DNA from: an uncultured Chloroflexia bacterium
GTDB lineage: Bacteria; Chloroflexota; Limnocylindria; Limnocylindrales; CSP1-4
Assembly (NCBI GenBank): GCA_963746405.1
Contig: CAVVAV010000003.1
Span: 933,589-997,588, forward strand
Direction of reading: 5' to 3'
DNA: 64,000 nucleotides
The notes under the pieces are model-generated. The model was not told where the DNA came from. It saw nothing but the letters and a program-made list of their open reading frames with translations, and did not search any database. Positions 16,592-59,427 of this stretch are shown in pieces. Every line of letters begins with the position of its first letter. Position 1 is the first letter of the stretch. Position numbers and translations under genes: made by a program.

Positions 16592-17335
16592 ATGAAGGTC
16601 GTGGTGGTGGGCGGAACGGGTCGATTGGGCTCGCAGGTGGTGGCCGAGTTGCAGCGCCGTGGGCACGAAGCGGTGGCCGCGGCACCGAGCACCGGCTTTG
16701 ACACGCTTACCGGTGCGGGCGTTCTCGAGGGCTTGAAAGGAGCGCAGGCCGTCGTCGACGTGTCGAACGCGCCGACGTTCGAGGACGCTGCGGTGCTCCA
16801 GTTCTTCCAGACCTCGACAGGCACCCTGCTGGCAGCCGAGCGAGAGGCCGGGATCGGGCACCACGTCGTGTTATCGATCGTCGGTGCCGATCGCGCGCCT
16901 GACAGCGGCTACATGCGGGCCAAGGTTGCGCAGGAGCACCTCGTGGTCGATGGCGGCGTGCCGTACACCATCATCCGTGCCACGCAGTTCTTCGAGTTCA
17001 TCGGCGGGATCGCCGACGCAAACACGACCGACGGCACCGTGCGACTCCCGTCGGCCCATCTCCAGCCCATCGCCGTCAGCGACCTGGCCGCCGCTGTGGC
17101 GGACGTAATCGAGGGATCGCCGACCGACGGCGTGGTGGAGGTAGCCGGACCAGAGGCGATCGGATTGGACGAGCTCGCCCGCCGGGTCCTGTCCGCGTCT
17201 GGCGACCCGCGGCCGGTCGTCACGGACGAGTCCGTGAAGTACTTCGGTGCCCAGCTCGACGATGCGACGCTGACCCCGGGGCGATCCGCTCGCATCGCCC
17301 CGACGCGCCTCGACGAATGGCTCAGCCGGCGGTGA
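16592..17335 (+). CDS. NAD(P)-binding NmrA/SDR-like oxidoreductase
   Basis: MKVVVVGGTGRLG Rossmann motif; 248 aa. Confidence 0.75.
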   Translation: MKVVVVGGTGRLGSQVVAELQRRGHEAVAAAPSTGFDTLTGAGVLEGLKGAQAVVDVSNAPTFEDAAVLQFFQTSTGTLLAAEREAGIGHHVVLSIVGADRAPDSGYMRAKVAQEHLVVDGGVPYTIIRATQFFEFIGGIADANTTDGTVRLPSAHLQPIAVSDLAAAVADVIEGSPTDGVVEVAGPEAIGLDELARRVLSASGDPRPVVTDESVKYFGAQLDDATLTPGRSARIAPTRLDEWLSRR

Positions 17336-17675: not shown

Positions 17676-18609
17676 ATGACTGACACCGGAGGGAGACGAC
17701 CGCGTCGTCGCCACGACCCTTGGTCGGCCGATGGCGCGGTGGTTCCGCCGGGGCCCTCGACCGTGGACCTGCATGCTCATTCGACGCGGTCGGATGGGGT
17801 GCTGGAGCCGGCGGCGCTGCTCGAGGCCGTCGCGGCGGCGGGGGTTCGCACGTTCTCCCTGACCGACCACGACACCCTCGCCGGATACCGGGATGTGGCA
17901 AAGAGCGGTGCGATCCCGCAAGGGCCTGACGCTCATCCCGGGTGTCGAGATCAACGCGCTGGTCACCCGGGACCTTGGGCTGTGGGAAGGCGAGCTGCAC
18001 ATCCTGGGGTTCGGGATGGATCCCGACGACGAGGTGTTCGAAGCAGCTCTGGTCGCGCAGCGTCAGGCTCGGCGGATCCGATTCGACCGGACGGTCGCGC
18101 TCCTGCGGGAGCTCGGGCTCCCGATCGACACGCAGGTCGCGGCGCTCCAGGTCGGTGCCGACGATGCGCTCGGTCGACCCACCATCGCCCGGGCGCTCAT
18201 CGGGGCTGGGTTCGCGACCAGTGTCGAGGACGCGTTCAGCCGCCTGATCGGGCACGGGGCGCCCGGCTACGTCCGGCGCGAAGGGCTGGGCCCGGAAGCG
18301 GCCATCGAGGCGATCGCGGCCGCCGGCGGGATCCCGGTGCTCGCCCACTTCCGCGAGGCCTCCGCCCGGATCGATGTGGTGCGTGAGCTGGTCGAGGTCG
18401 GGCTGGGTGGTCTCGAGGTCTATTACCGCTCGTTCGACATGCCAACCGTCCAGGCCGCCGAGGCGGTGGCGGCGAGTCTCGGCCTCATCGCGACGGGCGG
18501 CAGCGACTACCACGGGGACCTCGGCCCGTACGCGGAGGCCCACGCCGCACTGTGGGTTCCGCCCGAGGTCGGCGAGCGGCTGGTGGAGACTCTGTCCGCC
18601 CAGGCCTGA
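17676..18609 (+). pseudogene. PHP-domain metal-dependent phosphoesterase, frameshifted near 17915
   Basis: N-part VDLHAHSTRSDG...LTDHDTLAGY in frame of ORF 17655..18386, C-part PGVEINAL...ELHILGF...GGSDYHG in frame of ORF 17893..18609; shift at CCC/GGG run. Confidence 0.7.
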
Positions 18610-45012: not shown

Positions 45013-45264
45013 ATGCTGACCGTGCCTGAGGCCGCGCGACGCGCAGGGCGCAATCCGGAGACCATCCGACGATGGATCCGTGAGGGCAAACTGCGCGCCC
45101 GCAAGGTCGGGACGCAGCATGTCCTCGAGGAGGCCGACCTCGCTGAAGTACTCGGAGCGTTCGAGGATACGGTCGAGCTGCCGCCCGAATGGCAGCGAAC
45201 CTTCTGGGGCGGTGCCATGCCGGACGTCGTCGCGGCCGTCCGACGGTCTCGCGCGGGACACTGA
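45013..45264 (+). CDS. Antitoxin, excisionase/MerR-like HTH (VapB-like)
   Basis: MLTVPEAARRAGRNPETIRRWIREGKL HTH; 83 aa; adjacent to PIN toxin gene. Confidence 0.7.
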   Translation: MLTVPEAARRAGRNPETIRRWIREGKLRARKVGTQHVLEEADLAEVLGAFEDTVELPPEWQRTFWGGAMPDVVAAVRRSRAGH

Positions 45265-45265
45265 C

Positions 45266-45670
45266 GTGCTGCTGGTCGTGGATGCCAGCGTGATCGTCCA
45301 GGTCAGCCTCGCGGGCGGCTCGTTGGGGCCGCTCGAGGATCACGACCTCATCGCCCCGACGCTGTTGGCATCGGAGGTCACCTCGGTCCTGTGCGAGATG
45401 ACGCACCGCGGTGAGGTTCCGCATGACCACGCGCGCGTGGCCGTTGGGAGGCTGGAGAGCCTGCCGATCCGCTACGAGCGTCCGGACGGCCTTGCGGAGC
45501 GCGCATGGGACCTCGCGCGATCCCTCGGATGGGCCAAGACGTACGACGCCGAGTACCTCGCCCTGGCGCTCATCAATGAGGCGCCGCTCATCACGATCGA
45601 CGAACGCATGCGACGCGGGGCGGGCCACGTCGTGTCGATGCCGAGTCCGACCGAGCTCGCGGCGATCTGA
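45266..45670 (+). CDS. vapC: PIN-domain toxin VapC
   Basis: LLVVDASVIV (first Asp), later acidic residues; GTG 2 nt after antitoxin stop. Confidence 0.7.
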   Translation: MLLVVDASVIVQVSLAGGSLGPLEDHDLIAPTLLASEVTSVLCEMTHRGEVPHDHARVAVGRLESLPIRYERPDGLAERAWDLARSLGWAKTYDAEYLALALINEAPLITIDERMRRGAGHVVSMPSPTELAAI

Positions 45671-45745
45671 TGGAGGGTGGGGGAGGGGTGCCGTCGCCAC
45701 GACGCTGAGCCCTGCGAGGGAGTCACGCTGCGCTACGCTGCGACG

Positions 45746-46510
45746 GTGACCGCAGTCTCGTTCGCCGTCGAGGGTCGGGTCGCGCTCGTGACCGGCGCGA
45801 CCGGTGGCATCGGCGCCGACCTGGCCATGGCGTTCGCCGAGGCCGGCGCACGGGTGGGCGTCGCCGGGCGGGCGGGGGAGCGCGTCGACGCCGTCGTCCG
45901 CGCCATCCGCGCTACGGGTGGGGAAGCCTCCCCCGTCGAGCTCGATCTGACCGACCGGGCGTCGATCGAACGCGCCGTCGCGCAGGTTGTCGACACATTC
46001 GGCCGGCTCGACATCCTGGTCAACAACGCCGGGCTCGGGACAAACCACGATGCGATCGACGCGACCGAGGCCGAGTGGGACGAGCTCTTCGCGGTCAACG
46101 TGCGTGGGCTGTTCTTCGCCTCGCAGTCGGCCGCCCGAGTGATGCTGCCGCAGGGCTCTGGACGCATCATCAACATGGCGTCACAGGCGGGCCTCGTGGG
46201 CATCCCGCGCCACGCGGCCTATTCGGCAAGCAAGGCGGCGGTGATCGGCCTGACGCGCGTGCTGGCGCTCGAATGGTCGCCGCACGGCGTGACGGTCAAC
46301 GCCGTCGCCCCGACCTGGGTCTACACGCCCGGGACGGCGGAGCGCCTGGACGATCCGGCGTTCCTCGCGTCGGTCCTGGAACGGATCCCGGCTGGCCGGG
46401 TCGCGACAACGGCCGATGTCGCTGCCGCGGTGCTGTATCTGGCCTCGCCGGCGGCAGGGATGGTCACAGGGACCGTCCTGACGGTCGACGGCGGCTGGAC
46501 GGCGCGGTAG
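45746..46510 (+). CDS. SDR family oxidoreductase
   Basis: VTGATGGIG, NNAG, YxxxK (YSASK); alt ATG start 45677. Confidence 0.85.
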   Translation: MTAVSFAVEGRVALVTGATGGIGADLAMAFAEAGARVGVAGRAGERVDAVVRAIRATGGEASPVELDLTDRASIERAVAQVVDTFGRLDILVNNAGLGTNHDAIDATEAEWDELFAVNVRGLFFASQSAARVMLPQGSGRIINMASQAGLVGIPRHAAYSASKAAVIGLTRVLALEWSPHGVTVNAVAPTWVYTPGTAERLDDPAFLASVLERIPAGRVATTADVAAAVLYLASPAAGMVTGTVLTVDGGWTAR

Positions 46511-46539: not shown

Positions 46540-47289
46540 CTAACCACTTCCGATAAGGTGAGTTATGTCTGACTGGGGACGGAGATGGTCCGCGGCGGAT
46601 TCATGAACTCGAGACGACCCTATTCTGTGCTTTGGGGTCTCGCCCAGCCGATCGATTAGGGCGTTGAGGCCGCCGGTAAGCCCGAGAGACGCAATCCCTA
46701 AGATGGCCAACAGGACCGCGACGAGCGTCCATCGCCGCGCGGTAAATAGGTCTTGCGCCACACGGGATCCGCTCAGGTACGCGGATTGGGTAGCGCGGCG
46801 TAGTGCCTCAGCTGCGGCGGCTTGGAGCGACGCCTCGGTTGGCTCCTCGTTACGAAGCGACCGCGCGAGGATTCCGAGGCGATCGAGACTTATGCCGCCC
46901 GATTCGGTCAATCCGCTCGCGAGCGACGCTATTGCAATCGCAATCGCCAGACTAACGTCTGCAAGCAGCAAGATGACGAGTGGCGTCCAATCCCAAAGGC
47001 TCGCATATGGCGCAGGGATCACGACTGCCGTAGCACCAAGCGCGAACGGAACCAACGCAAGGAGAAGCGTGAGATGGGTTGAGACCTTGGACTGGAGGCT
47101 ATCAACAGCCCCATCGGCTAGCTCCAGGCTCTTAATCGCGAGCTCTAGGGCTACCTCGCTTCGCCGCTCATCCCCTGCCGCGTCGCGAATCCACTCTGGT
47201 GGCGGTGTTGCCGGAAGTCGCTCAAGCCCTTCAGCGGTTCGTGCATCGCCTGCGATGAATGCGACAAATCGGCGGAGCGTCCCGGCCAC
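46540..47289 (-). CDS. Membrane protein (3 predicted TM), hypothetical, low-GC island
   Basis: GTG start abuts ATP-grasp stop (TAAGTG); hydrophobic segments. Confidence 0.55.
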   Translation of the reverse strand: MAGTLRRFVAFIAGDARTAEGLERLPATPPPEWIRDAAGDERRSEVALELAIKSLELADGAVDSLQSKVSTHLTLLLALVPFALGATAVVIPAPYASLWDWTPLVILLLADVSLAIAIAIASLASGLTESGGISLDRLGILARSLRNEEPTEASLQAAAAEALRRATQSAYLSGSRVAQDLFTARRWTLVAVLLAILGIASLGLTGGLNALIDRLGETPKHRIGSSRVHESAADHLRPQSDITHLIGSG

Positions 47290-48219
47290 TTAACGAGTCC
47301 TCGTTAGCGCTCTAGCGAGTGCTTCCGTGATCCGTCCGTTATATGTATCGTCGAGAAAGAGCCACTGTCCGTTTGGATTCGCTTCGAGAAATACGCTCTC
47401 GCCGCTGCGGCTCACAATCCAGTCTTGGGATGAATACCCGAGCCCGAGGGCGCTCGCCACACGCAGCGCATCGTCGGCAACTCTTGGATGGGCACCATCG
47501 GCCACGACAAAGCGTTGATGATTCTCGGTCTTGAGCCGCCAATCGAGATCCTCGGTGGTTAACGCGGCTACGAAAGCCGCGCGTTCGACTGTTACCACGC
47601 GTAGGTGTGTGGATGCCTCCATGAGCTCTTGCAGGATTACTGGTACTCCGCCGAGGTCACGAAGCTGCTCAGGCCCGACCTCCGTTGTGAACGCGACCCT
47701 GGGAGGATCGTTCGAGACCAGCCCGTAGCGAATTGGCTTAACCACAACGCGACCATGATCGCGAACAAATCGCCGTGCGCGCCGTGCGTCTGACGTAACA
47801 ATTGTCTTGGGAATTCGAAGCCCGAGTGAGTTGGCAACCGCGAGCTGGTAGCCCTTTACCTCTGACCGCTGCAAGACGTGCGGAGGGGTGAGCCAGTCCA
47901 CAGTCGTGTGGGCCGCGAACATCAGCGTTTCGCGCCACTCTTGAATGACAAACTCGGAATACAGACTGTCAACGTCGTCGACTACCACGCGACCGGGCCG
48001 CCTCCAGAACCCGCGCGTTGTAGCGTCTATGAGATGTCGGTTCCCAACGATCCAGTGGGGTGGATCAGGCGTCCAATAGAAAGACGCGGAAGCCAACGTA
48101 TCCCTGGACAACCGAATCGTTCGAGCGCCTAGGCGAAAGAGGGCCTGCTCAAGCGCGTCGCCATGTTCATCCGAGGGGGCCGATACTAGGAGGACTTCAG
48201 CCCCAGCTGGGCTCGTCAT
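47290..48219 (-). CDS. ATP-grasp enzyme, RiPP-maturase-like (graspetide/microviridin-type)
   Basis: 309 aa; LDWR and FLEANPNGQWLFLD motifs recalled from MdnC/ATP-grasp ribosomal peptide maturase families; low GC. Confidence 0.65.
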   Translation of the reverse strand: MTSPAGAEVLLVSAPSDEHGDALEQALFRLGARTIRLSRDTLASASFYWTPDPPHWIVGNRHLIDATTRGFWRRPGRVVVDDVDSLYSEFVIQEWRETLMFAAHTTVDWLTPPHVLQRSEVKGYQLAVANSLGLRIPKTIVTSDARRARRFVRDHGRVVVKPIRYGLVSNDPPRVAFTTEVGPEQLRDLGGVPVILQELMEASTHLRVVTVERAAFVAALTTEDLDWRLKTENHQRFVVADGAHPRVADDALRVASALGLGYSSQDWIVSRSGESVFLEANPNGQWLFLDDTYNGRITEALARALTRTR

Positions 48220-48436
48220 CAGTCGTCTCAGGAGGCTGGCTCCTGGTCAATCTCGTACCGCCAGGGACCTCGCCAGGAACTGATCTAGCAACCCTAGCCA
48301 GCAATGGGAGTCCTCCTCCCACGACTAGGTCAATCGCTGTCAGCCCGGGGTCATCCGATGTCTCGGCTGTCTTGGTGAAGACGGTTTGGCCTTCCGCGTG
48401 GCCTTGGACCTCAACTGAGATCTTTTCGAGGATCAT
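48197..48436 (-). CDS. Candidate precursor peptide/small ORF upstream of ATP-grasp
   Basis: Only ORF in the 345-nt gap; G-rich SD upstream; MILEKISVEVQGHAEGQTVFTKTAETSDDPGL rich in T/S/K and D/E; 3' part rare-codon, may be non-coding. Confidence 0.25.
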   Translation of the reverse strand: MILEKISVEVQGHAEGQTVFTKTAETSDDPGLTAIDLVVGGGLPLLARVARSVPGEVPGGTRLTRSQPPETTDDEPSWG

Positions 48437-48565
48437 GTGTCGCACTCCCGTGCTCCCTCCCCCGTCGCCGGCAGCGTCGGGCCGTCAATCCAGAGTCTAT
48501 CGACCGAACAGTCGGTTTGTACACACTCGCCACTCTGCTCGTGACTGATCCAATACGAATTGCAG

Positions 48566-50888
48566 CTAGGCGAGGTAGGAGCGGACTCTTCCGGGTGCGT
48601 ATAGAAAGCGATCAATCGACGCCGATACGTTGTAGTAGTACGGCGGATGCTCGATGTAGTTCGCCAGAAGCGCCTCGAGGAACGCGGGATCAGCGCGCTG
48701 GGTGATGACAGCCACGGCCGCGACCCGGATTTGTGCACTCTCGCTGTGGAGGAGCGCCTCGAACTCTGAGATAGGCACGTTGCCGTCGGCGCCTAGCGCC
48801 TGAACCGCCGCGTGGACAAGCTCTGCGTCGGCGCTCCCCAGGAGCGAACGCGCAAACTCCGTGCCCCCAAGCCGAAGACTCGCTGCGGTCAATGCTTCAC
48901 GCTCTTCGTCCATCGTGAGCCTCGCGGACTCTGCGAGCAACGGCGCATCACGACGCTCTCCAACCAATGCTAGGGCGGTTGCCACGTCAGCCTTCGCGGA
49001 CCGATTGATGTGCTCCAGGGCCTGTCGGATGAGGTCAATGTCGTCGGCGCCTCGCACGTCGGGGGAAAGCCGAGCGAGCAATTGCGCGGCGGCATTAGTT
49101 CGGCGCCCGTAGAGATAGCCGAACACGCTCTTCTCACCAGCCAGCGCCGGTAGCTCCGCAGCCGCCGAAGAGGCCCACTCATCCTCTGTCTGGGACAGGA
49201 GTTGGCGCGCTTCGTCCGCCATCGACTCGCCGTCCAGCCACGTCAAGGCCTCCCATGCCTCGTGATCAAGCGCCGACCCAGCGGACCGACGCAACTCATC
49301 AAGGGGGATGCTCATTGCCATTAGGCGCGGCCTGAGCGCGGTCGCCCATGGGCTTCGTTCATCGACGAGCCGATCCAAAAGCTGTTGTGCCAAGACTCTC
49401 CGAGCGTCGACGTAGTCCAGGACAAGGTTGGTCAGGTCGGAACTCGCGTCGTCCACCGCGTTGGCAAGCTGATCAACACTACAATTCCCCCGGTTCAGCA
49501 ACTCAACCAGCGCTGCCCGTCGCAACGGAGTCTTTATGCGCCGCTTGATCAGGTTCGCGAGATCGACGTCGTCCAGCAGGGCGACGTCCCGCTGGAGGAG
49601 TTCGCGAGCCCATGGCCTAATGTCGTATCTGTCGCCGATCGCAACGGCCACAAGTGGACTGTGGTCGCCTTGAAAGGCTGCTCTAAGCGCTTGGACATCC
49701 GCGGTGCCGACGTCGTCGGGTGCCCCCTCGACGATTGCACGCAATAGCCCCTCGTCATGCCGCTCGGCCAGACCTGCCAAGTACTTGGTTGCGTTCATCG
49801 AGCGCAATGGATCGGCAAGCAGCTTCACCCATCGCTCGGCCTTTTCGGCCAGTTCTGATTGCGTCGTTTCGTCGTTCGCCCAAAGGTCGCGCGGTCGCAC
49901 GGACATGATGTTGAGCAGACGCAGCGCGCCCCGCGCCGCGGTCAAGTCGTCGCCTTGGGCCATCGCCGCGAGCCGCCTCTCCAAATCGGCTTCTCCGACA
50001 ATTGCCCAACCCGGCACGACCAATTCTGCGACGTCCTCGGACGCGAAATCTGTCGCGAGTGTCTTGAGCCACTGCTCGGCTTCGCCCACGATCAACGAGA
50101 TCTCTGCATGACGACGGTACAGACGGTTCACCACGTGGGTGGGCAAGGCGTCCCCGTTGCCAATTGCGATCGAGAATAGAAGTAGGCGGTCAGGATCAAG
50201 CGAGGTGGAGGGTCGGTCACCGGCGACGACGCGTCGGAATCCATCGAGAACGTCTGTGATCTGTTCCTGTGCTGATCTGCGCTCGCTGTCGGGGTCCTCC
50301 TCTTGCGAACTGGTCGGACGCCCTGCGGCGGAATCGCCGGAGTCGGCAGGGGCGGCCGTAGGTCCGGGAGCGGTCCGGCCTTCCGTCACGGCGCGATCTG
50401 TGACCACGCCCACGAGGTACGCGACGAGCTGTCTATCTAGATCAGGAAGCGAATCGAACTCGCGATACAACGCAAGCTGCTCGTCGCGGATTCGTCCCCG
50501 AAACTCAAGCACACGCTGCAGCCTGCGGACCGGCGTCAGCCTCCTCGCCTTCGAGAAGGCGTTTGAAGAAGAGTCCAATAGCCGGGGTGTGCGCCGTGGC
50601 TCGCCTTCCGACGACTCGTTCGAACTCTTCGGCGAAACCGGAATCGTTAGCCCCGGTATTGGACCCCCACCGTCGGTGAAGTAGCCCGACAAAGATGTCG
50701 CAAGAATCCACCAACGGGTTGATCAGGTCCTGTGGACGACCGAGGTCCGGGGCAACTCGCTCCCAACCGGTTACGCGAATTCGAACGCCCAGACTGACGC
50801 CGCACATTTCCACGACGCGGTCCGCCACAACGCGCACCAAAGCGCGTTCCTCGGGAAGATCACCTGGTGAAGCGATGAATAGTTCCAA
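48566..50888 (-). pseudogene. DUF4062 N-domain + HEAT/ARM-like repeat protein, frameshift near 50533
   Basis: N-term MELFIASPGDLPEER (DUF4062-like, ORF 50505..50888) continues in other frame into 708-aa ORF with C-terminal HEAT-like repeats. Confidence 0.55.
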
Positions 50889-50934
50889 CTCAATTGCCTC
50901 GGTGACCAGCGTTCATCCTCCTACACCCACGGCC

Positions 50935-51225
50935 CTAATCGAGGTTGGCTAGTCCGTTTCCCGATGGCGTTGTCTTATCTTCGGGCCTCGTCGTGGTCGC
51001 TAGCTCTGGCCACAATCGTCTTTGGAATCCGCTTTCGGCTGGCAGCGCGAGATGGCCATCTTGTCGTCCCTCCTTCGCGCTCGTCCTGAAGTCGCACTTG
51101 GGAAGCCCGGGCCCAGCCGGCCCCACCGTACCTGGGGTTCCAGGCGGGTCGGAGCAGGGCCAGCAGAAACCGGCGACGAGTCGAGCGGACACGCCGGTCG
51201 CCGCCTGGGCCGCGAAACCGATCAC
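50935..51225 (-). pseudogene. Relic fragment of DUF2075-like gene
   Basis: AAQAATGVSARLVAGFCWPCSDP...KCDFRTSAKEG vs AQAATGATARLVAGFCWPWSDP...KSDFWASAKEG in 52553..54478; ~70-nt DNA identity; high-GC patch. Confidence 0.6.
51147..51214. repeat. ~70-bp dispersed repeat copy A (matches 53042..53110)
   Basis: CAGGGCCAGCAGAA(A/G)CCGGCGACGAGTCGAGCGG...GCCGCCTGGGC shared. Confidence 0.7.
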
Positions 51226-52494
51226 TTCCGCTTCACGGCGTCAGCGACGATATCAAGCAGCCGTTTCACCAGATCATTTCCGTCGTCAGCTGTACTTCCA
51301 GCTACTGGCGCTGTGAGAAACGACCGTTTAGCGAGGTCATACTTGAGCTCGTTACGCTTCTCGTCGTCGAGCAACGCGACGAAGGGATCAAGCGCGGTGA
51401 GGTCGAGTTCCGACTTTCGAGCGCGCCACTCGGTCTGCCGGTGGCGGCCTGACTCTGCGAGTGCATAGAGACCGATGCCGAGAAGAGGCAGCGCGACAAG
51501 CAGCCTGCCTGTTAGCCATTGCAGTGTGAACTCTGTGGCGCCGGTAGTGACGATTGTGAAGACTCCCCAGGCGGCAATAGCGACGAAGAGACCGATGCCG
51601 ACCCATCGCCACCGGTCGGCGGCCTTGTGCTCGGATTCGGCTTGGCCCAGATAACCCCCGCTCGCTGCCTCCGCACCCAGGGCACTTAAGACCTTCCGCG
51701 CGTCGTCGCGGGACGCCGTCATGTCTTCGAGCAGGGTTTCAGCGCCTGCGCGGAGCTCCTCCGCGGAAGTGCTTGCAAGTTCACGCTGCTCGGTCATGAA
51801 CGTGGCGTGTTCCTCGGCCGCGCGCGCAGTCTGCTGTCGCGAACTGCTCAGCCCGCTGCGACTCCGCTGTGGAGAACTGTGACTGGAACTGGGCAATCGC
51901 CGCGTCAAGCCGGCTCTTCTGGTTCGAGATCTCAGCCGTCAACTCCGTCTGCCTTGCCGCCAGGGGCGCGAGAGCGGACTGGGCCTCTGCCGTGGCCTGA
52001 TCTACGAGCTGTTCGATCTCGGAGCGCACTCGTGCAAGGGCTTGCTCAAGTTCCGCCGCTCGGTCTCGGTTTCGTCCTGCTTCACCGCGGAGGTCCTCCA
52101 GAACCTCCTCCACGTCCCGCCGAAGCGCCGCGATCGTCTGCCGTGCTTCGCGAGCCGGGCGCTGTAGCCAAGTCGTGAGGGCGTCGAGGACTTGCTCGAG
52201 GTAAGCGTTCGCACTGGTGAGCTGGGCGGCGTCGCCGGACGAGACGTACGCGCTTGTCGCGTTCTGAACCTGGCTGAGTGCAGGCGAAGGTGCGTCGATG
52301 ATTCGCGCCGACAGAAGTTGGGGATCCGCGCTGAGAATGATCGCGCGGGCGACTTCGATACCTGCCCTGAGTCGCTGCTGGTCGTCCCGTTCTTTGTCGG
52401 ATTTGGGGTCCGGCAGTTTGCTCAGAAGTTCGACGAGGGCACGCGTTAGTGCGACCGTCTGACTGCCAGCATGCCGGTCACGCCACTCACTCAT
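51222..52494 (-). pseudogene. Coiled-coil protein with two C-terminal TM helices, frameshift at (GC)n ~51817-51826
   Basis: ORFs 51781..52494 and 51222..51908 join into Q/A/E-rich coiled coil then WRWVGIGLFVAIAAWGVFTIV and LLVALPLLGIGLYALA TM. Confidence 0.5.
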
Positions 52495-52552
52495 CGCAGC
52501 GCCTTACAGAGCGGGAGGGTCCGCAGATAGCGCGGGGTATAGGCGGCACGAG

Positions 52553-54478
52553 CTACTCCTCGTACGTCGCGGCAGCTTGCGCTGCCATATGAGTGTCCGT
52601 GGTTGCGAGTTCCGTTCGGCTCAGGAAGAAGTCGCGCGTCGGGGCGTCCATGAAGTAGACGTAGCAGCCGCGGAGACCGCGGGTCAGCAGGACGCGGTAG
52701 GTGCTCTTGACGTAGCGGGTGAACTCGGCCTCGGTGACGCCGCGGCGGACGACGCGGTCGTGCGACTGGTCGCGCTGGCCGACCCATCCCCCGTCCATCG
52801 GCCGGTAGACGAGGTCGGGGCCGACGATCACGCCGACGTAGTCGAACTCGAAGCCCTGCGCCGTGTAGACGCAGCCCACCTGGTCGATCCCCTCCTTCGC
52901 GCTCGCCCAGAAGTCCGACTTCGGGATGCCGGGGCCGAGCCGGCCGACGCCGTCCCTGGCGTTCCAGGGCATCGACCACTCCCCTACCCTGACGTCCGGC
53001 ACGAGCTGGCCGTCGTCGTCGGGGTCGGACCAGGGCCAGCAGAAGCCGGCGACGAGTCGAGCGGTCGCGCCGGTTGCCGCCTGGGCGCGGATCTTCTGCT
53101 CGAGCTGGCCGATCGAGCCGACGATCTGGAAGTCGAACTCGTCGTCCATCGACCAGAGCACCTGCGGCGTCCGGTTGAGCTCGAGCGTGTTGTCGACCCA
53201 CTGGATGAACGAGTCGGAGCCGTTCGAGCGGAACTGCGCCTCGAGCTTGAAGTCGCGCACCTCGATCGAGCGCTTGGCGGCCTCCTCGCGGATCAGGTCG
53301 GTGCTGCCGACCTCGCCCGGGCGCACGACCTGCAGGTCATCGATGAAGAAGACGGTGACCCGGCTCGAGTCCAGGATGTCGTCGATCTGGGACTTGCCCG
53401 TGCGCGCCTTCGCGGGCGTGAAGCGGCTCGTGCTGATCGTCCGGATGCGGTGGGCCTCGTCGAGGATGGCGACGTCGAGCTTGTCGGTGACGGTCGCGGT
53501 GTCGCGGAAGTACTTGAACAGCGCGCCGGCTCGACCGCCGACGATCTTGCGCAGGTTCTCCGTGAACGCCTTGGAGCCGGTCAGGTGGAGCGTGCTGAGG
53601 CCGCGCTCGGCGAGCTCCGCGACGAGGTTGAGGGCGATGACCGACTTGCCGGTGCCCGGGCCGCCTTCGATGAGGAAGATGACGTTCTGCTCGTTTGTGC
53701 CCGCGTGGCCGACGGCGTCGAGGATGGCGTTGTAGGCCACGAGTTGTTCGTCGAGGAGCACGAAGGTCGGCTCGATGCGGATGACGCGGGCGACGTGGTC
53801 GAGCAGGCGCTTGTGTGGCTTGAACGCAGTCGCGGCGACGCGCTCCAGGATCTCGCCCTCGTCCGGGCCGGCGATGTGCTGATCGAGGAACGTCGCGAGC
53901 GCATCGGACTGGTCGCCGGCAAACGCGGGGTTGGAACCAAGGAGCGCCGTGAAATCCGCGTGGTAGAGCGGAGACATCGGGTCGTGCTGCGCGTAGTGAA
54001 GGTACGCGCAGGCATCGAGGGCGATCGCGCGGTCGTCCGAAAACGCGGGATGGGTATCCAGCAGGTACCGCTGGTACTGCGCGACCTGGCGCGACGGGTG
54101 GAGCGTGTCGCGCGGCTTGCCGCCGTAGTCGACGGTGACGCAGTCGGTGATGTTCGACCGGCCGACTTCGGTCCACTGCTTGAGCTCGACGATCACGGCC
54201 GCGTCGCGGCGCGTGTCGGGGTTCGAGCCGGTGATGAGGACGTCAAGCCGCTTCGAGCTGAGCGGCATCTTGAGTTCGACGAGGATGCCCTGATCGGTCA
54301 GGTCGGCCGTCTGGAGCACGTGGGCCATCGCGCTGAGGCTGTTGCGCCAGCTCGTGACTTCGCTCGGAGATGGTCGGTAGCGGAACTCGTCGAACCAGCG
54401 GTCGCTCAGCATGTTGGCGAGCCGAGCCTGGGTTGCGTCCGCGATGAACTGCCGGGTCGAGCCCTGGTAGAGGTGCAA
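52553..54478 (-). CDS. DUF2075-like protein: N-terminal PD-(D/E)xK-like (NERD-type) segment + SF1-like P-loop ATPase
   Basis: ILVELK / VIVELKQW segments; Walker A IEGGPGTGKSV; Walker B LDVAILDEAHRI; TTG start with G-rich SD. Confidence 0.65.
   Translation of the reverse strand: MHLYQGSTRQFIADATQARLANMLSDRWFDEFRYRPSPSEVTSWRNSLSAMAHVLQTADLTDQGILVELKMPLSSKRLDVLITGSNPDTRRDAAVIVELKQWTEVGRSNITDCVTVDYGGKPRDTLHPSRQVAQYQRYLLDTHPAFSDDRAIALDACAYLHYAQHDPMSPLYHADFTALLGSNPAFAGDQSDALATFLDQHIAGPDEGEILERVAATAFKPHKRLLDHVARVIRIEPTFVLLDEQLVAYNAILDAVGHAGTNEQNVIFLIEGGPGTGKSVIALNLVAELAERGLSTLHLTGSKAFTENLRKIVGGRAGALFKYFRDTATVTDKLDVAILDEAHRIRTISTSRFTPAKARTGKSQIDDILDSSRVTVFFIDDLQVVRPGEVGSTDLIREEAAKRSIEVRDFKLEAQFRSNGSDSFIQWVDNTLELNRTPQVLWSMDDEFDFQIVGSIGQLEQKIRAQAATGATARLVAGFCWPWSDPDDDGQLVPDVRVGEWSMPWNARDGVGRLGPGIPKSDFWASAKEGIDQVGCVYTAQGFEFDYVGVIVGPDLVYRPMDGGWVGQRDQSHDRVVRRGVTEAEFTRYVKSTYRVLLTRGLRGCYVYFMDAPTRDFFLSRTELATTDTHMAAQAAATYEE
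53042..53110. repeat. ~70-bp dispersed repeat copy B
   Basis: See 51147..51214. Confidence 0.7.
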
Positions 54479-54526
54479 CCCCTCCCCTTCCCCGATGGGC
54501 CGCCGTGACGGTCGACGACGTGGTGA

Positions 54527-55582
54527 CTATACGGCCTGATCCGACGGCGGATCCGCCCCCGCGCTGCCAGACATCGGCGTGGTCTTCCCCTCCCCGTCTC
54601 GATTCGTCATCGAGCCTTTATCGCGGCCCGGGCGCGCTGCCCATGGTCCCGTCGCCGGGGCGAGGGTCGTCTCGATGCGGCGCCCCAAGCGATCGACCTC
54701 CGCGACGTCGATCGCGGGCGGAAGCGCTCGGATGCGGGCCAGCAGGTCCGTGTGCGACGTCAGCGTGACACCGGCGATCGACTTGGGGCCGAACAGCCCG
54801 AACTGACCGCCCACGACGCAGATAACGCACTCCACGTGCTCGACCGACAGTGCGGCCCTCAGCGACGCGGCCTGCCGCTCGACCTGCTCGACGAATGTCG
54901 TCGCCCGATGACCCTTCAGGAACAGCTCTTTGCCCCGGACGCGGACGTCACCCGCGTAATGCTTCGTCTCGATGACGATGACGCCGGGCGGGCCAACGAC
55001 GATGTGGTCGATGTTGTCGCGGCCACCCGGCCGGCGCCGGTCGTGGAAGACGTGGAAGCCATCCGCCTCCAGCATGGCGAGTGTCCGCCCGATCTGCTCC
55101 TCGCCAGCCGCACCGATGCGCCAGGCCAGCACATCCGGTGGTTTGGCATACAGCTCGGCGAGGGTCCACGCGAGGCCGGCGAAGATCAGGGCAACGCCGA
55201 GGAGCGGCAGAGTAGACCCTTGTGGCACGAGGGCGATCCCCGCGAGGATCATGACGCCCCCGACGGCGAGGATGTCGGGCCGGCGCCTGCGTATCCGAGC
55301 CTCATGCGCCGCCAGCCGACGCTCATACGTCGCGCGTGTCGAACCGCCCGCCCGTGGCGACTCGATCGCCGTGGTCATGGCCGTGATCGGCGGGGTCGGC
55401 GCCGTTCCGTCCACCGCGGTCTCGAGCGCGCGTGTGCCCCGGCAGGTCGGGAAGTGTGAGCACCCCCAGAAGGCAGCGTCGTCGGCGCGCCGGGTGCGCA
55501 GGATCATGGACGATCGGCAGCGCGGACATATCGGTGGTTCCGACTCAGTCCCGCTCCGTGCAGTCGCCGGCTGGGCGGCCAT
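54527..55582 (-). CDS. NERD-domain protein with N-terminal C4 zinc ribbon and two TM helices
   Basis: Start [11 protein letters not shown] after GGGGGAGGGGAG; CPRC...CSHFPTC zinc ribbon (topo-type); NERD motif [20 protein letters not shown]. Confidence 0.7.
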
Positions 55583-55742
55583 CGCTCCCCTCCCCCGGTT
55601 CGACCCGCGAGGGTCGCTATCGACCCGCAGTGTACGGGAGGGCATCGCGCTCGCTCCCCTCGGCTGCGCGGCGGGATTGCGGATGGCATTCGACGCCCAT
55701 AGGCTTGAGACCAGCCATCCCGCCAGAAAGTCGCCTTCCCGT

Positions 55743-56774
55743 ATGAGCCTCGATGACTTCCCGCGCGTGTCTTTGATGTTCGGGCCGTCGCCTGCGCATC
55801 CGCTGCCACGCCTGAGCGCAGCGCTCGGAGGACGGGTAGAGATCTGGGCCAAGCGCGAGGACTGCAACTCGGGCATCGCCTTCGGCGGCAACAAGGTCCG
55901 CAAGCTCGAGTACCTGGTCGCCGATGCGCTGGCCAACGGCTGCGACACGCTGGTCTCCATCGGCGGGGTCCAGTCGAACCACACCCGCGCTGTCACGGGT
56001 GCCGCCAGACACTTGGGTCTCGGCGCCGTCACCGTCCAGGAGCACTGGGTCGACTGGGACGACCCCGGCTACGAAACCGTCGGCAACATCCAGCTGACGC
56101 GGATCATGGGTGGTGACATCCGGATGAACCCAGCTGGTTTCGATATCGGTGTGCGAGACAGCTGGCGAGAGGCGCTCGAGTCGGTCGAGAAGGCTGGCGG
56201 CAGGCCGTACCCGATCCCCGCGGGAGCCTCCGACCATCCGCTCGGGGGCCTGGGCTTCGCGAACTGGGTGCGTGAGGTCGCTGCGCAGGAGGCGCAGCTC
56301 GGGCTGCTGTTCGATCACGTCATCGTCTGCACCGTCACCGGCTCGACACACGCCGGGATGATCGCCGGGACGGCCCTGGAGGACCGAGGCGGCGGAAGTG
56401 GTCGCCGAGTGATCGGCATCGATGCGTCGAAGACGATCGAGCGGACGCGCGACCAGGTGACTCGGATCGCGCGCGCCACCGCCGAGCTGATCGGCGTGGA
56501 CCGTGAGCTGCGCGACGACGAGGTCACGTTGATGGATGGGTATGCAGGCCCGGTCTATGGCGTGCCCGACGACCAGACGATCGAGGCGATCCAGCTCGCT
56601 GCGCGGACCGAGGGGATGATCACCGACCCTGTCTACGAGGGGAAGTCGATGGCAGGTCTCATCGGGATGATCCGCTCCGGCGATATCCCGCCGGGTTCGC
56701 GGGTCCTCTACGCGCACCTCGGCGGACAGCCCGCCTTGTCGGCCTACGCGCACACTCCGGGACTGGGCGGCTAG
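55743..56774 (+). CDS. acdS: 1-aminocyclopropane-1-carboxylate deaminase
   Basis: Near full-length colinearity with recalled AcdS: FGPSP...[23 protein letters not shown]-Lys, [16 protein letters not shown]. Confidence 0.85.
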
Positions 56775-57976: not shown

Positions 57977-58185
57977 CGGGTCGAGTTCCTTCTACGGGGT
58001 CTGGATCCAAGCATCAAGCGTCCCCCGCGGGCTTTGCCCCACCGATCGGGTTCGCCGCGTGACAGCCGGCCGACAGACCCGCTGGGCTAGCTCGTGTCAG
58101 CGCACTCGGGATGGTGGCCGGATCATGCCCCAGCCGCCCGTCGCCTCCCGACGGCTCGCTGGTCGAGGTCGGCATACTCTCGATC

Positions 58186-59427
58186 ATGTCGTTCCTGCGA
58201 AAGCTCTTCGGGTCGGGGGATAAGCCGAGGCGGCCCTCCGCTCGACGCGCCTCGTCCCCTCCCCCGTCACGACCTCCGTCGCCGCCGGCTGGCACGCCGC
58301 CGCCTCGGATCCCGACGCTGGCTGAATCGTCGCCGCGGGCGCTGCACGCCTACTTCGAATACGTCGGCGGCGGGTCCTCGAAGTTCTACGCGGTCAGCCT
58401 GGAGGAGGAGGACGGGGAGACCTGGCGTGTCCGCTTCAACTTCGGGCGGATCGGGTCCCGCCGGGAATGGGCTACGCGTGTCGAGGGTGTGACGTGGGCA
58501 AAGGCAGCCACCACGTACGTGGCCTTGATCGACGAGAAGCAGGGTAAGGGCTACGAGATCCAGCGCTGGCCGGCGGCCCTGCGGCTGCCGGACGGCTCGA
58601 CGATCGAGGAGGATCCATCGGCGGACAGCGTCCAGACCCGCTTCCGAGCCGCGACCCGCGGCTCGCTGCCGCCTGAGACCGGCGGCACGATCGCCGGCGT
58701 CGCGCTGCCGGATGGTCGGCTCTATGCGCCCGAGCCAGAGGGTGGGTCACGCGGCGACGACCCCGTGATCTGGGCGTCCTCGGCGCCGGTCAAGGACGTG
58801 GCACGGATCTGGTCCCAGCTGGCCCTTGCGTTCCCGCAGACCGGAATCTGGCCGTTCGTCATCGACGCCTCGTTCGGCTTCGACGGATTCGACGAACGTC
58901 TCATGGATCTCCCGAGGGGCCGCCACACCGAGGTCATGACGATCCTCCGACGGGGCTGGAACGAATTGGTGGAGTCAGACGAGGACGATGAGGCCGAGGA
59001 GCTGTCCCCGTTCGGGAATGCGTTCCCCGGCCTCGCCCGACCGACGCCGTCGGATCAGCCGGCATCCATCGACGCCATCGTGGCGACGTTGAGCGGTCAT
59101 CTGGGTCTGGTCGCCGTCAACCGTCCGGCTGACATCCTCGATGCGGTCGGCTGGATGGGCGCCGCGAACTACGACGGCGACCCGCTCGACATGACCACGG
59201 TGCTCCGCTCATGGGAGCTTCGGTTCGACGCCTACGTCGTCGAGCTGGGCACGGACACGCTGACCCTCGCCGTGGGCCGCCCGGCGCGCGACCTCGAGTC
59301 GGCCCTGGCGATCGCCGCGGAGCACTACGCCTTCTGCCCCGACAACGTCCAGCAGGGCGAAGGGTCGATCCAGGCGTACGCTGAGAGCCTCGTCGACGCG
59401 GAGGTGTGGCCGTTCTGGTGGGACTGA
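58186..59427 (+). CDS. WGR-domain protein with C-terminal DUF4253-like domain
   Basis: WGR signature YFEYVGGGSSKFYAVSL...WRVRFNFGRIGS; P-rich linker; C-term ...EVWPFWWD. Confidence 0.6.
   Translation: MSFLRKLFGSGDKPRRPSARRASSPPPSRPPSPPAGTPPPRIPTLAESSPRALHAYFEYVGGGSSKFYAVSLEEEDGETWRVRFNFGRIGSRREWATRVEGVTWAKAATTYVALIDEKQGKGYEIQRWPAALRLPDGSTIEEDPSADSVQTRFRAATRGSLPPETGGTIAGVALPDGRLYAPEPEGGSRGDDPVIWASSAPVKDVARIWSQLALAFPQTGIWPFVIDASFGFDGFDERLMDLPRGRHTEVMTILRRGWNELVESDEDDEAEELSPFGNAFPGLARPTPSDQPASIDAIVATLSGHLGLVAVNRPADILDAVGWMGAANYDGDPLDMTTVLRSWELRFDAYVVELGTDTLTLAVGRPARDLESALAIAAEHYAFCPDNVQQGEGSIQAYAESLVDAEVWPFWWD

Follow-up and report, generated by a model that had tools for sequence, protein, structure and literature searches.

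In a 64,000-nt stretch of DNA from an uncultured Chloroflexia bacterium (GTDB lineage Chloroflexota; Limnocylindria; Limnocylindrales; CSP1-4; assembly GCA_963746405.1, contig CAVVAV010000003.1, positions 933,589 to 997,588; hereafter the window), an intact gene for a putative Nhi-like nuclease-helicase is followed on the same strand by a single foreign gene (the cargo gene) and then by a decayed 3′ fragment of the helicase gene itself (the relic). We consider it likely, with a probability of about 60%, that the relic is the displaced 3′ end of the resident helicase gene, pushed downstream by homology-anchored recombination with incoming DNA. In itself the relic is an ordinary pseudogene, and its value is that of a dated scar from which the rebuilding of a defence island can be read: homologous recombination in a conserved defence gene would bring unrelated genes in behind it and leave the old gene end as debris. 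This is a known type of scar, now seen in a new gene family and phylum, and its recurrence in four genomes points to a repeated process rather than an accident. The island in which it lies ends, on its far side, at a site resembling the dif sites used by Xer recombinases.

The relic lies 1.34 kb downstream of the intact helicase gene and is the counterpart of helicase segment 52876-53086. BLASTN aligns the two copies in two collinear blocks, one of 65 nt (51146-51210 versus 53022-53086, 60/65 identical, 92.3%, E=5e-23) and one of 79 columns (51068-51144 versus 52890-52968, 83.5%, E=1e-17). In a global alignment, the homology reaches to ~51055 and stops sharply at 51210/51211; the relic carries a 54 nt internal deletion (52+1+1 nt, i.e. 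18 codons, residues 488-505) and another of 2 nt, and is ~17% diverged from the intact copy. At the protein level, the open reading frame (ORF) over the relic matches the intact helicase with E=2e-15 (BLASTP, 34/66 identical). When the intact gene was masked, the relic was the sole helicase fragment in the window (tblastn, E=1.7e-11), and no third DNA copy of it was found there, the next best match having E=0.23. The relic sequence is not of low complexity. An earlier note, made from the letters of the window alone, had placed a relic of a second DUF2075-like gene at 50935..51225, and the collinear blocks, the protein match and the frame-breaking deletions bear this out. The ~70 nt of near-identity that it described are real and extend further than it stated, although the position that it gave for the second copy, 53042..53110, is wrong by ~20 nt. 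The fragment derives from the C-terminal third of the protein (residues 465-535 of 641) and not from its middle, as had been proposed, and part of the protein-level resemblance (VGPAGPGLPK), significant as this is overall, had been read from a shifted frame.

The relic combines significant homology with truncation to codons 465-535 and disruption of the frame, and is a pseudogene remnant rather than a working ORF. It starts 11 nt past the TGA stop codon (51222-51224) of the cargo gene, the only gene between it and the intact helicase. The 96-aa ORF of the earlier note, which extends well beyond the relic and whose GTG start overlaps that same stop codon (GTGA), is an accident of high GC content and is judged to be non-functional. 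The longest perfect match remaining between the two window copies is 19 nt, and, given the homology requirements of RecA, this repeat is probably no longer recombinogenic. The two helicase copies are not the ends of a mobile element.

Relative to its homologues, the cargo gene carries a 1-nt insertion near 51831-51833, which splits it into the ORFs 51781..52494 and 51222..51908. Its only close homologues, in the short contigs L081 and L082, both read straight through without a frameshift; the one in L082 (protein P0003) has 429 aa and 65% identity to the window protein at 100% coverage. The 'coiled-coil' ORF and the 'transmembrane' ORF are therefore one foreign gene, its frameshift being either real or an assembly error, and what had been taken for a separate coiled-coil gene is the 5′ part of this gene. 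The family is nearly an orphan, with a handful of members among 5.8 billion proteins, and the window protein belongs to no Pfam or PADLOC family. Other members of the family sit in different gene contexts, and the GC content at third codon positions (GC3) is ~0.69 for the cargo gene versus 0.93 for the helicase gene. In L081, a 5′-truncated fragment of a TacT-type GNAT toxin (residues ~107-162; L081 757-930) lies directly after the cargo stop codon; Pfam did not recognize the fragment, which was identified by a PDB sequence search (7ak7, E=1e-8).

Relatives were sought by a scan of one genome per species, which yielded ~24 Chloroflexota loci ('Chloroflexia'/Limnocylindrales metagenome-assembled genomes), with helicase proteins 68-88% identical to that of the window, plus more distant ones. 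The closest syntenic relative, locus L044, is the only one that shares flanking genes with the window. Its helicase gene has 93.5% DNA identity, but homology is limited to 54496..52605 and returns only at 46569, and the ~6 kb between the helicase and SDR genes is entirely different DNA. The DNA content downstream of the helicase differs in every relative. A 3′ fragment of the helicase gene was found in three further loci. In L007, it spans codons 518-641, to the native stop codon, and begins exactly at the stop of a 248-aa gene that follows the intact helicase; in L009, it spans codons 488-558 and lies ~190 nt past a 348-aa membrane/coiled-coil gene; and in L103, it spans codons 493-641 and starts 8 nt past the stop of a 141-aa membrane-protein gene. 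The layout of intact gene, one small gene and same-strand 3′ fragment is thus common to the window, L007 and L009, and probably to L103, which was found independently through the boundary motif described below and whose contig ends before any intact helicase copy could appear.

All four relics are 5′-truncated 3′ fragments on the helicase strand (0/4 are 5′ fragments), and their start points in the gene (nt 1393, 1462, 1478 and 1552, i.e. codons 465-518) are clustered within 160 nt (p=0.003-0.014). No homology was detected among the cargo genes of the window, L007, L009 and L103, and being mutually unrelated these genes indicate that the four scars arose in independent events. In ~44 more distant loci with adequate flank, no relic was found (Fisher p=0.04), and two full-length helicase copies were seen in no locus examined. 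The suggestion that the relic is a footprint of cassette exchange and recombination in a defence locus, for which comparison with homologous loci had been proposed, is thus borne out by the replaced segment in L044 and by the recurrence of the scar with a different cargo each time. In L007, the genes of a Hachiman system lie between the relic and the dif-like site (L007 13077-17253); they encode HamA (PF08878) and a DEAD-box helicase that has a HIRAN domain.

The intact helicase gene of the window is itself a mosaic. It has 97-100% DNA identity to those of L044 and L020 over nt ~800-1770 and is 95-99% identical to those of L001, L009 and L018 over nt ~1480-1770, against only 75-90% identity in its 5′ part and 85-89% identity to L044 in the flanking core genes. 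The alleles of L011, L013 and L014 remain at only 77-89% in the same 3′ region, which argues for exchange between lineages and not for constraint, and the overall pattern of identity indicates that segments of the helicase gene recombine between lineages. A reading after the manner of polymorphic toxins, in which the 3′ end would co-vary with the downstream gene, was rejected, as the near-identical 3′ segments (97-100%) of the window, L001, L009 and L044 precede unrelated downstream genes. The relics also differ in their affinities. That of L007 is a typical allele, 83-84% identical to those of L001, L009, L044 and the window, and shares only 69.5% identity with the intact gene of its own locus. 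There it is the intact gene that has the atypical 3′ segment, which suggests that the attached end is the newcomer and the relic the old end; an atypical intact 3′ end is what would be expected if it had come with the cargo. The L009 relic is closest to its own gene (90%).

In the explanation that we favour, the incoming DNA would have brought its own copy of the helicase 3′ segment and, behind it, a single foreign gene, that of the 423-aa coiled-coil/membrane protein. One homologous crossover inside the resident helicase gene, with an illegitimate join near codon 465 at the other end, or, to the same effect, the insertion of a small circle through a single crossover, would have rebuilt the helicase gene with the incoming 3′ end and displaced the resident 3′ end to just beyond the stop codon of the new cargo gene. 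There, having lost its function, the displaced end would have been eroded by deletions and substitutions. The second DUF2075-like copy that the earlier note had seen in this fragment is real as a relic, but it is better explained as a displaced resident 3′ end, and a whole second gene is not needed.

Several observations weigh against this account. The relic of the window is closest to its own intact gene (82.7%, versus 79.5% for L020 and 78.2% for L044), by a margin of only a few nt, so that in the window either copy may be the resident one. No donor is known that carries the helicase 3′ segment with the cargo, and neither of the cargo homologues in L081 and L082 adjoins a helicase gene, on contigs of only 1.1 and 3.6 kb. 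Homology-facilitated illegitimate recombination is reportedly rare (PMC5361080), yet it would have to account for four cases here. A purely random illegitimate join does not predict that the junctions cluster within 160 nt, and DNA could instead have entered by way of the dif-like site nearby.

This 28-bp site lies where the homology to L044 resumes, and the cargo homologue contig L082 shares an exact 26-nt string with it (window 46546-46571); it gives the island a defined far boundary, which goes beyond the earlier note. The corresponding motif of the clade, ACTTCCGATAA-GGTGAG-TTATGTCTG, occurs once in almost every clade locus, always downstream of the helicase and on the same strand, at a distance of 63 bp (L068) to 6.5 kb. 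The site has an 11-6-11 layout with an inner ATAA...TTAT symmetry. Its left arm (C-arm) is identical to that of the dif site predicted for Solibacter usitatus, ACTTCCGATAA-CGAATA-TTATGTCAACT, and matches 9/11 positions of the Bacillus subtilis dif site, ACTTCCTAGAA-TATATA-TTATGTAAACT, and its right arm (D-arm) begins with TTATGT, as do the Escherichia coli, B. subtilis and Frankia sites (Kono et al. 2011, PMC3025954). Across the 20 sites that were aligned, only the hexamer, arm position 4 and the outermost 2 nt vary. We regard the sequence as a putative Xer/dif site, and as a candidate only. It is conserved in at least 140 loci, comprising 20 clade or cargo-derived loci, including the window, and at least 120 metagenomic contigs from a motif-only metagenome scan. 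It marks a one-sided, defence-rich insertion hotspot in environmental Chloroflexota. If it is a true Xer site, it would provide a sequence handle for locating defence islands in an uncultured, poorly studied phylum, as well as a testable case of Xer-associated defence-gene turnover outside Proteobacteria.

The one-sidedness is seen in the flanks of the motif-selected loci. A D-side flank of 1 kb or more was present in 48 of the 120 that were fetched, and one of 2.5 kb or more in 15. Among the 48 loci with both flanks, 39 of 1128 pairs were homologous on the C-arm side and 4 of 1128 on the D-arm side, the latter flank being ~10x more variable. Among the metagenomic loci listed, a contig end falls within 60 nt of the site in 17 cases for the D-arm side versus 6 for the C-arm side, and such assembly breaks beside the D-arm are consistent with population-level variation immediately there. 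In at least 12 other loci, a PIN/VapC gene is found next to the C-arm, 32-100 nt from it, and 5 of 10 D-side ORFs of the motif-selected loci gave strong PADLOC hits (Type IIG restriction-modification, cytosine methyltransferase, AbiU-like, PDC-M48B and PDC-M34B). Helicase sequence was present in only L103 and L168 among the motif-selected metagenomic loci listed, and the association of the helicase with the site is partly a sampling effect.

The site is present once in the 64-kb window, once in each ~22-kb locus and once in each metagenomic contig listed, and extra sites are carried only by L044 and, as a variant with a 9-nt spacer, by L007. In L044, two Xer-type sites are directly repeated 1.18 kb apart (17292-17319 and 18480-18507); the inner one, TCCCGGGAGAA-GGTGAG-TTATGTCCGTT, has a degenerate C-arm, with central region and D-arm identical to those of the main site. 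By analogy, this pair shows a junction pattern like that of integrative mobile elements exploiting Xer (IMEX). The second dif-like sequence of L007 (18112-18140) lies 0.87 kb beyond the main site, on the C-arm side, and the two bracket a small AbrB-like (antitoxin-type) ORF, identified by eye only. Searches with a position-weight matrix and for half-sites detected no second site, half-site or arm remnant in the window and no Xer-site remnant at any relic junction examined. No switch of GC skew was found at the site in 20 loci (10/20 each way, mean difference 0.004), whose flanks are short and whose skew is weak, and the GC skew of the window is noisy, with no terminus signal at the site.

The structure of the scar could in principle be explained in other ways. 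Chance similarity or an assembly artefact can hardly be credited: the genome is GC-rich and the window may contain indel errors, with two frameshifted island genes, but the two collinear blocks are unique in the window, a divergence of 17% with internal deletions is not expected of a misassembled duplicate, and the same structure is present in three independent assemblies. It is also highly improbable that the fragment is a functional small ORF, such as a C-terminal helicase module that stands alone, has its translation coupled to that of the cargo and serves, say, as a regulator or decoy. In-frame start codons do lie at the junctions, as a GTGA overlap in the window, an ATGA overlap in L007 and an ATG 8 nt past the stop in L103, i.e. 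0-8 nt from the cargo stop, and the fragments of L007 and L103 are uninterrupted through the native stop codon. However, deletions break the frame of the fragment in the window, from which codons 536-641 are missing, and the fragment of L009 is frameshifted. A selection test was run on the in-frame relics of L103 and L007, the window relic being too short and too broken. Codon changes specific to these two relics comprise 17 to a novel amino acid versus 5 silent ones, against 34 versus 104 in intact alleles (odds ratio 10.4, p=3e-6), and they include hits at positions where all intact alleles agree, among them Y538D and Q541P, both within the TAQGFEFD motif. The excess of amino-acid changes and the broken frames indicate that the fragments are decaying pseudogenes; the in-frame relics evolve neutrally, and the substitution test led us to reject a functional mini-protein. 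That the helicase was duplicated locally in tandem, after which the downstream copy decayed and the foreign gene was inserted between the two, is improbable, if less so. By nominal identity, the relic of the window does stand nearest to the intact gene beside it, and the L009 relic to its own, as duplication would have it, but the gene in between is foreign and directly adjoins the start of the relic, the L007 relic is least similar to its own gene, no locus has two full-length copies, and four independent duplications with insertions at the same relative place would be unparsimonious.

The main rival is serial Xer-mediated accretion, in which a second element with its own helicase integrated, in the manner of IMEX, at the dif-like site downstream of an older helicase and cargo unit, further elements were added and the redundant copy lost its 5′ part and the junction site. 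We hold this to be possible but unlikely. The site bounds the island, with conserved arms, a variable hexamer and a C-arm identical to that of the predicted Solibacter site; its D-arm flank is the variable one, L044 carries a second partial site, the helicase 3′ end faces the site in every clade locus with both (~18), and other 5′-truncated remnants lie by the site or the cargo (tacT-like in L081, WGR-DUF4253 in L159). Against it, no second site, half-site or arm remnant was found in the window or at the relic junctions of L007 and L009, and extra steps would be needed, namely two helicase arrivals and a deletion ending at a stop codon. It also leaves unexplained why four 3′ fragments follow a single small gene, three of them 0-11 nt from its stop, and why the intact 3′ end of L007 is atypical. 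Because Xer-site remnants are absent from the relic junctions examined and the skew does not switch, Xer stacking is kept as the main rival and is not preferred. A broader proposal, which we advance only tentatively, is that the scar is one product of an organized, previously undescribed cassette-exchange system: a lineage-wide, one-sided Xer (dif-like) hotspot that gathers defence genes in Limnocylindria-type Chloroflexota, where incoming cassettes would carry the helicase 3′ segment along as a portable homology arm. Such a system would account for the 95-100% identity of the 3′ segments between lineages versus 85-89% in the core genes, for the way the junctions cluster at codons 465-518 and for the tight fusion of cargo stop codon and relic.

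Displacement of a resident 3′ end is familiar from other systems. In E. coli, the elements e14 and phage 21 integrate into icd and supply a replacement 3′ end, the original one being left as a pseudo-copy on the far side; these elements have their own integrase and a fixed att core. As with our favoured explanation, the target gene stays intact and its old 3′ end remains as a pseudo-copy. Unlike those elements, the window has no integrase, the junctions differ (codons 465, 488, 493 and 518) and the inserts are single small genes. A parallel in layout is the displacement of rhs C-terminal ends (Jackson et al. 2009, PMC2935791), with the orphan C-terminal/immunity modules of Rhs and CdiA (PMC3150448), for which homologous recombination, possibly through a circular intermediate, has been proposed (PMC2935791). 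In both cases, on our reading of the window, the gene retains its conserved upstream part and acquires another 3′ end together with a downstream gene, and the old 3′ end, with some conserved sequence still on it, stays behind downstream with its orientation unchanged. That the attached 3′ end is a different allele, as rhs displacement would have it, was found in L007, and in the window the relic is 82.7% identical to it versus 79.5% and 78.2% to the two other alleles. There are also differences. The window gene is a defence gene of the cytoplasmic nuclease-helicase type, where rhs genes encode secreted polymorphic toxins; what was displaced is no hypervariable toxin domain; at the helicase loci, the downstream gene does not change along with the 3′ end, and there is no pairing of tip and immunity gene; and the helicase relics decay neutrally instead of being conserved.

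Type VI secretion system effector genes of Vibrio cholerae are likewise displaced sequentially, by homology-facilitated illegitimate recombination (PMC5361080; the process is defined in PMC3240628). They share with our loci one homologous anchor upstream in a conserved gene, an illegitimate join downstream, an older module shifted downstream and a build-up of arrays of leftovers. However, the Vibrio leftovers are intact, selectively retained immunity genes, whereas the helicase leftover is a useless fragment, and in Chloroflexota this type of recombination is putative. IMEX, such as the CTX, TLC and VGJ phages (PMC4246890, PMC9226527), and the Xer-bounded pdif modules on Acinetobacter plasmids (PMC5790767) resemble our loci in the 28-bp 11-6-11 site with conserved arms, in the variable DNA piling up on one side, in the second site with a degenerate XerC-side arm (L044) and in a cargo of toxin-antitoxin, accessory or defence genes. 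They differ in that the window contains no second site or half-site and no phage or replication genes and the relic junctions contain no Xer-site remnants; a terminus position of the window site and its use by Xer are only hypothetical.

The intact gene from which the relic derives encodes a protein with an SF1-type PF09848 helicase domain at residues 266-611 (E=1.4e-87). Residues 1-240 have no Pfam or NCBIfam match and the whole protein no PDB sequence match, although a D...ExK-like string (RLDVLITG...VIVELKQW) was noted in the N-terminal region, by eye only. Its PADLOC matches, to PDC-S41, Nhi and AbiO, are all partial, that to Nhi (E=2.6e-13) covering residues 238-426 only. Nhi and Nhi-like proteins are single-gene anti-phage nuclease-helicases with an N-terminal region and a DUF2075 domain (bioRxiv 10.1101/776245; 10.1101/2022.05.11.491447). 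The window helicase shares this architecture, a ~240-aa N-terminal region followed by the DUF2075/PF09848 helicase domain, but differs in that its Nhi match is only partial and its N-terminal region matches no family, and we therefore describe it as a putative Nhi-like nuclease-helicase defence gene.

The features of the island and its surroundings are listed below. The earlier note had described cassettes of lower GC content at the flanks of the relic, and this agrees both with the GC3 of the cargo gene and with the GC content, which is 0.59-0.66 across 46.6-52.5 kb versus 0.67-0.73 in the flanks; by its composition, this segment appears to be foreign. Taken together, the results support the earlier interpretation. 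The low-GC hypervariable island comprises 46574-52552 and is part of a larger one-sided insertion hotspot. The DUF4062 ORF and the 708-aa HEAT-like ORF are probably one gene, the second frameshifted gene of the island.

Features of the window around the relic (positions within the 64,000-nt window)
Feature	Position	Strand	Description
PIN/VapC-like gene	45080..45670	+	Conserved neighbour on the C-arm side
SDR gene	45677..46510	+	Conserved neighbour on the C-arm side
Membrane protein gene	46540..47289	-	249 aa; distal island, directly beside the dif-like site
dif-like (Xer-type) site, putative	46546..46573	+	28 bp, ACTTCCGATAA-GGTGAG-TTATGTCTGAC; far boundary of the variable island
ATP-grasp RiPP-maturase-like gene	47290..48219	-	Microviridin/graspetide-type; TIGR04187 E=4.6e-44, below the family cut-off
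DUF4062 ORF plus 708-aa HEAT-like ORF	48566..50888	-	Overlap of 188 nt, in different frames
DUF4062 N-terminal ORF	50505..50888	-	127 aa; matches the N-terminus of the 906-position PADLOC PDC-S60 profile
96-aa ORF of the earlier note	50935..51225	-	Only the first ~54 codons helicase-derived
Relic of the helicase gene	51055..51210	-	156 bp; decayed copy of codons 465-535
Cargo gene	51222..52494	-	423-aa product; N-terminal coiled coil and two transmembrane helices
Intact helicase gene	52553..54478	-	641 aa; PF09848, Schlafen group 3/DUF2075; Nhi-like architecture
WGR+DUF4253 gene	58111..59427	+	11.5 kb from the D-arm

The WGR+DUF4253 gene lies only 105 nt from the D-arm in L174 and 546 nt from it in L150. 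Set against its distance in the window, that in L174 indicates that the DNA from 46574 to ~58100 was accreted on the D side, the intact helicase gene with it. The accretion would cover all 11.5 kb: the island, the helicase and the NERD+Zn-ribbon, ACC-deaminase-like, SRPBCC and FMN reductase genes. In L159, the last 36 codons of a WGR-DUF4253 gene (1670-1780) form a 5′-truncated remnant 104 nt from the D-arm. No tRNA gene is present anywhere in the window, and the island is thus not tRNA-targeted. Upstream of the helicase, two long ORFs overlap on opposite strands, one encoding a NERD domain with a topoisomerase-type Zn-ribbon (54527-56032, minus strand) and the other an ACC-deaminase/D-cysteine-desulfhydrase-like protein (54972-56774, plus strand). 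The true starts of both genes are clearly internal to the listed ORFs, the overlap being a shadow effect of high GC content.

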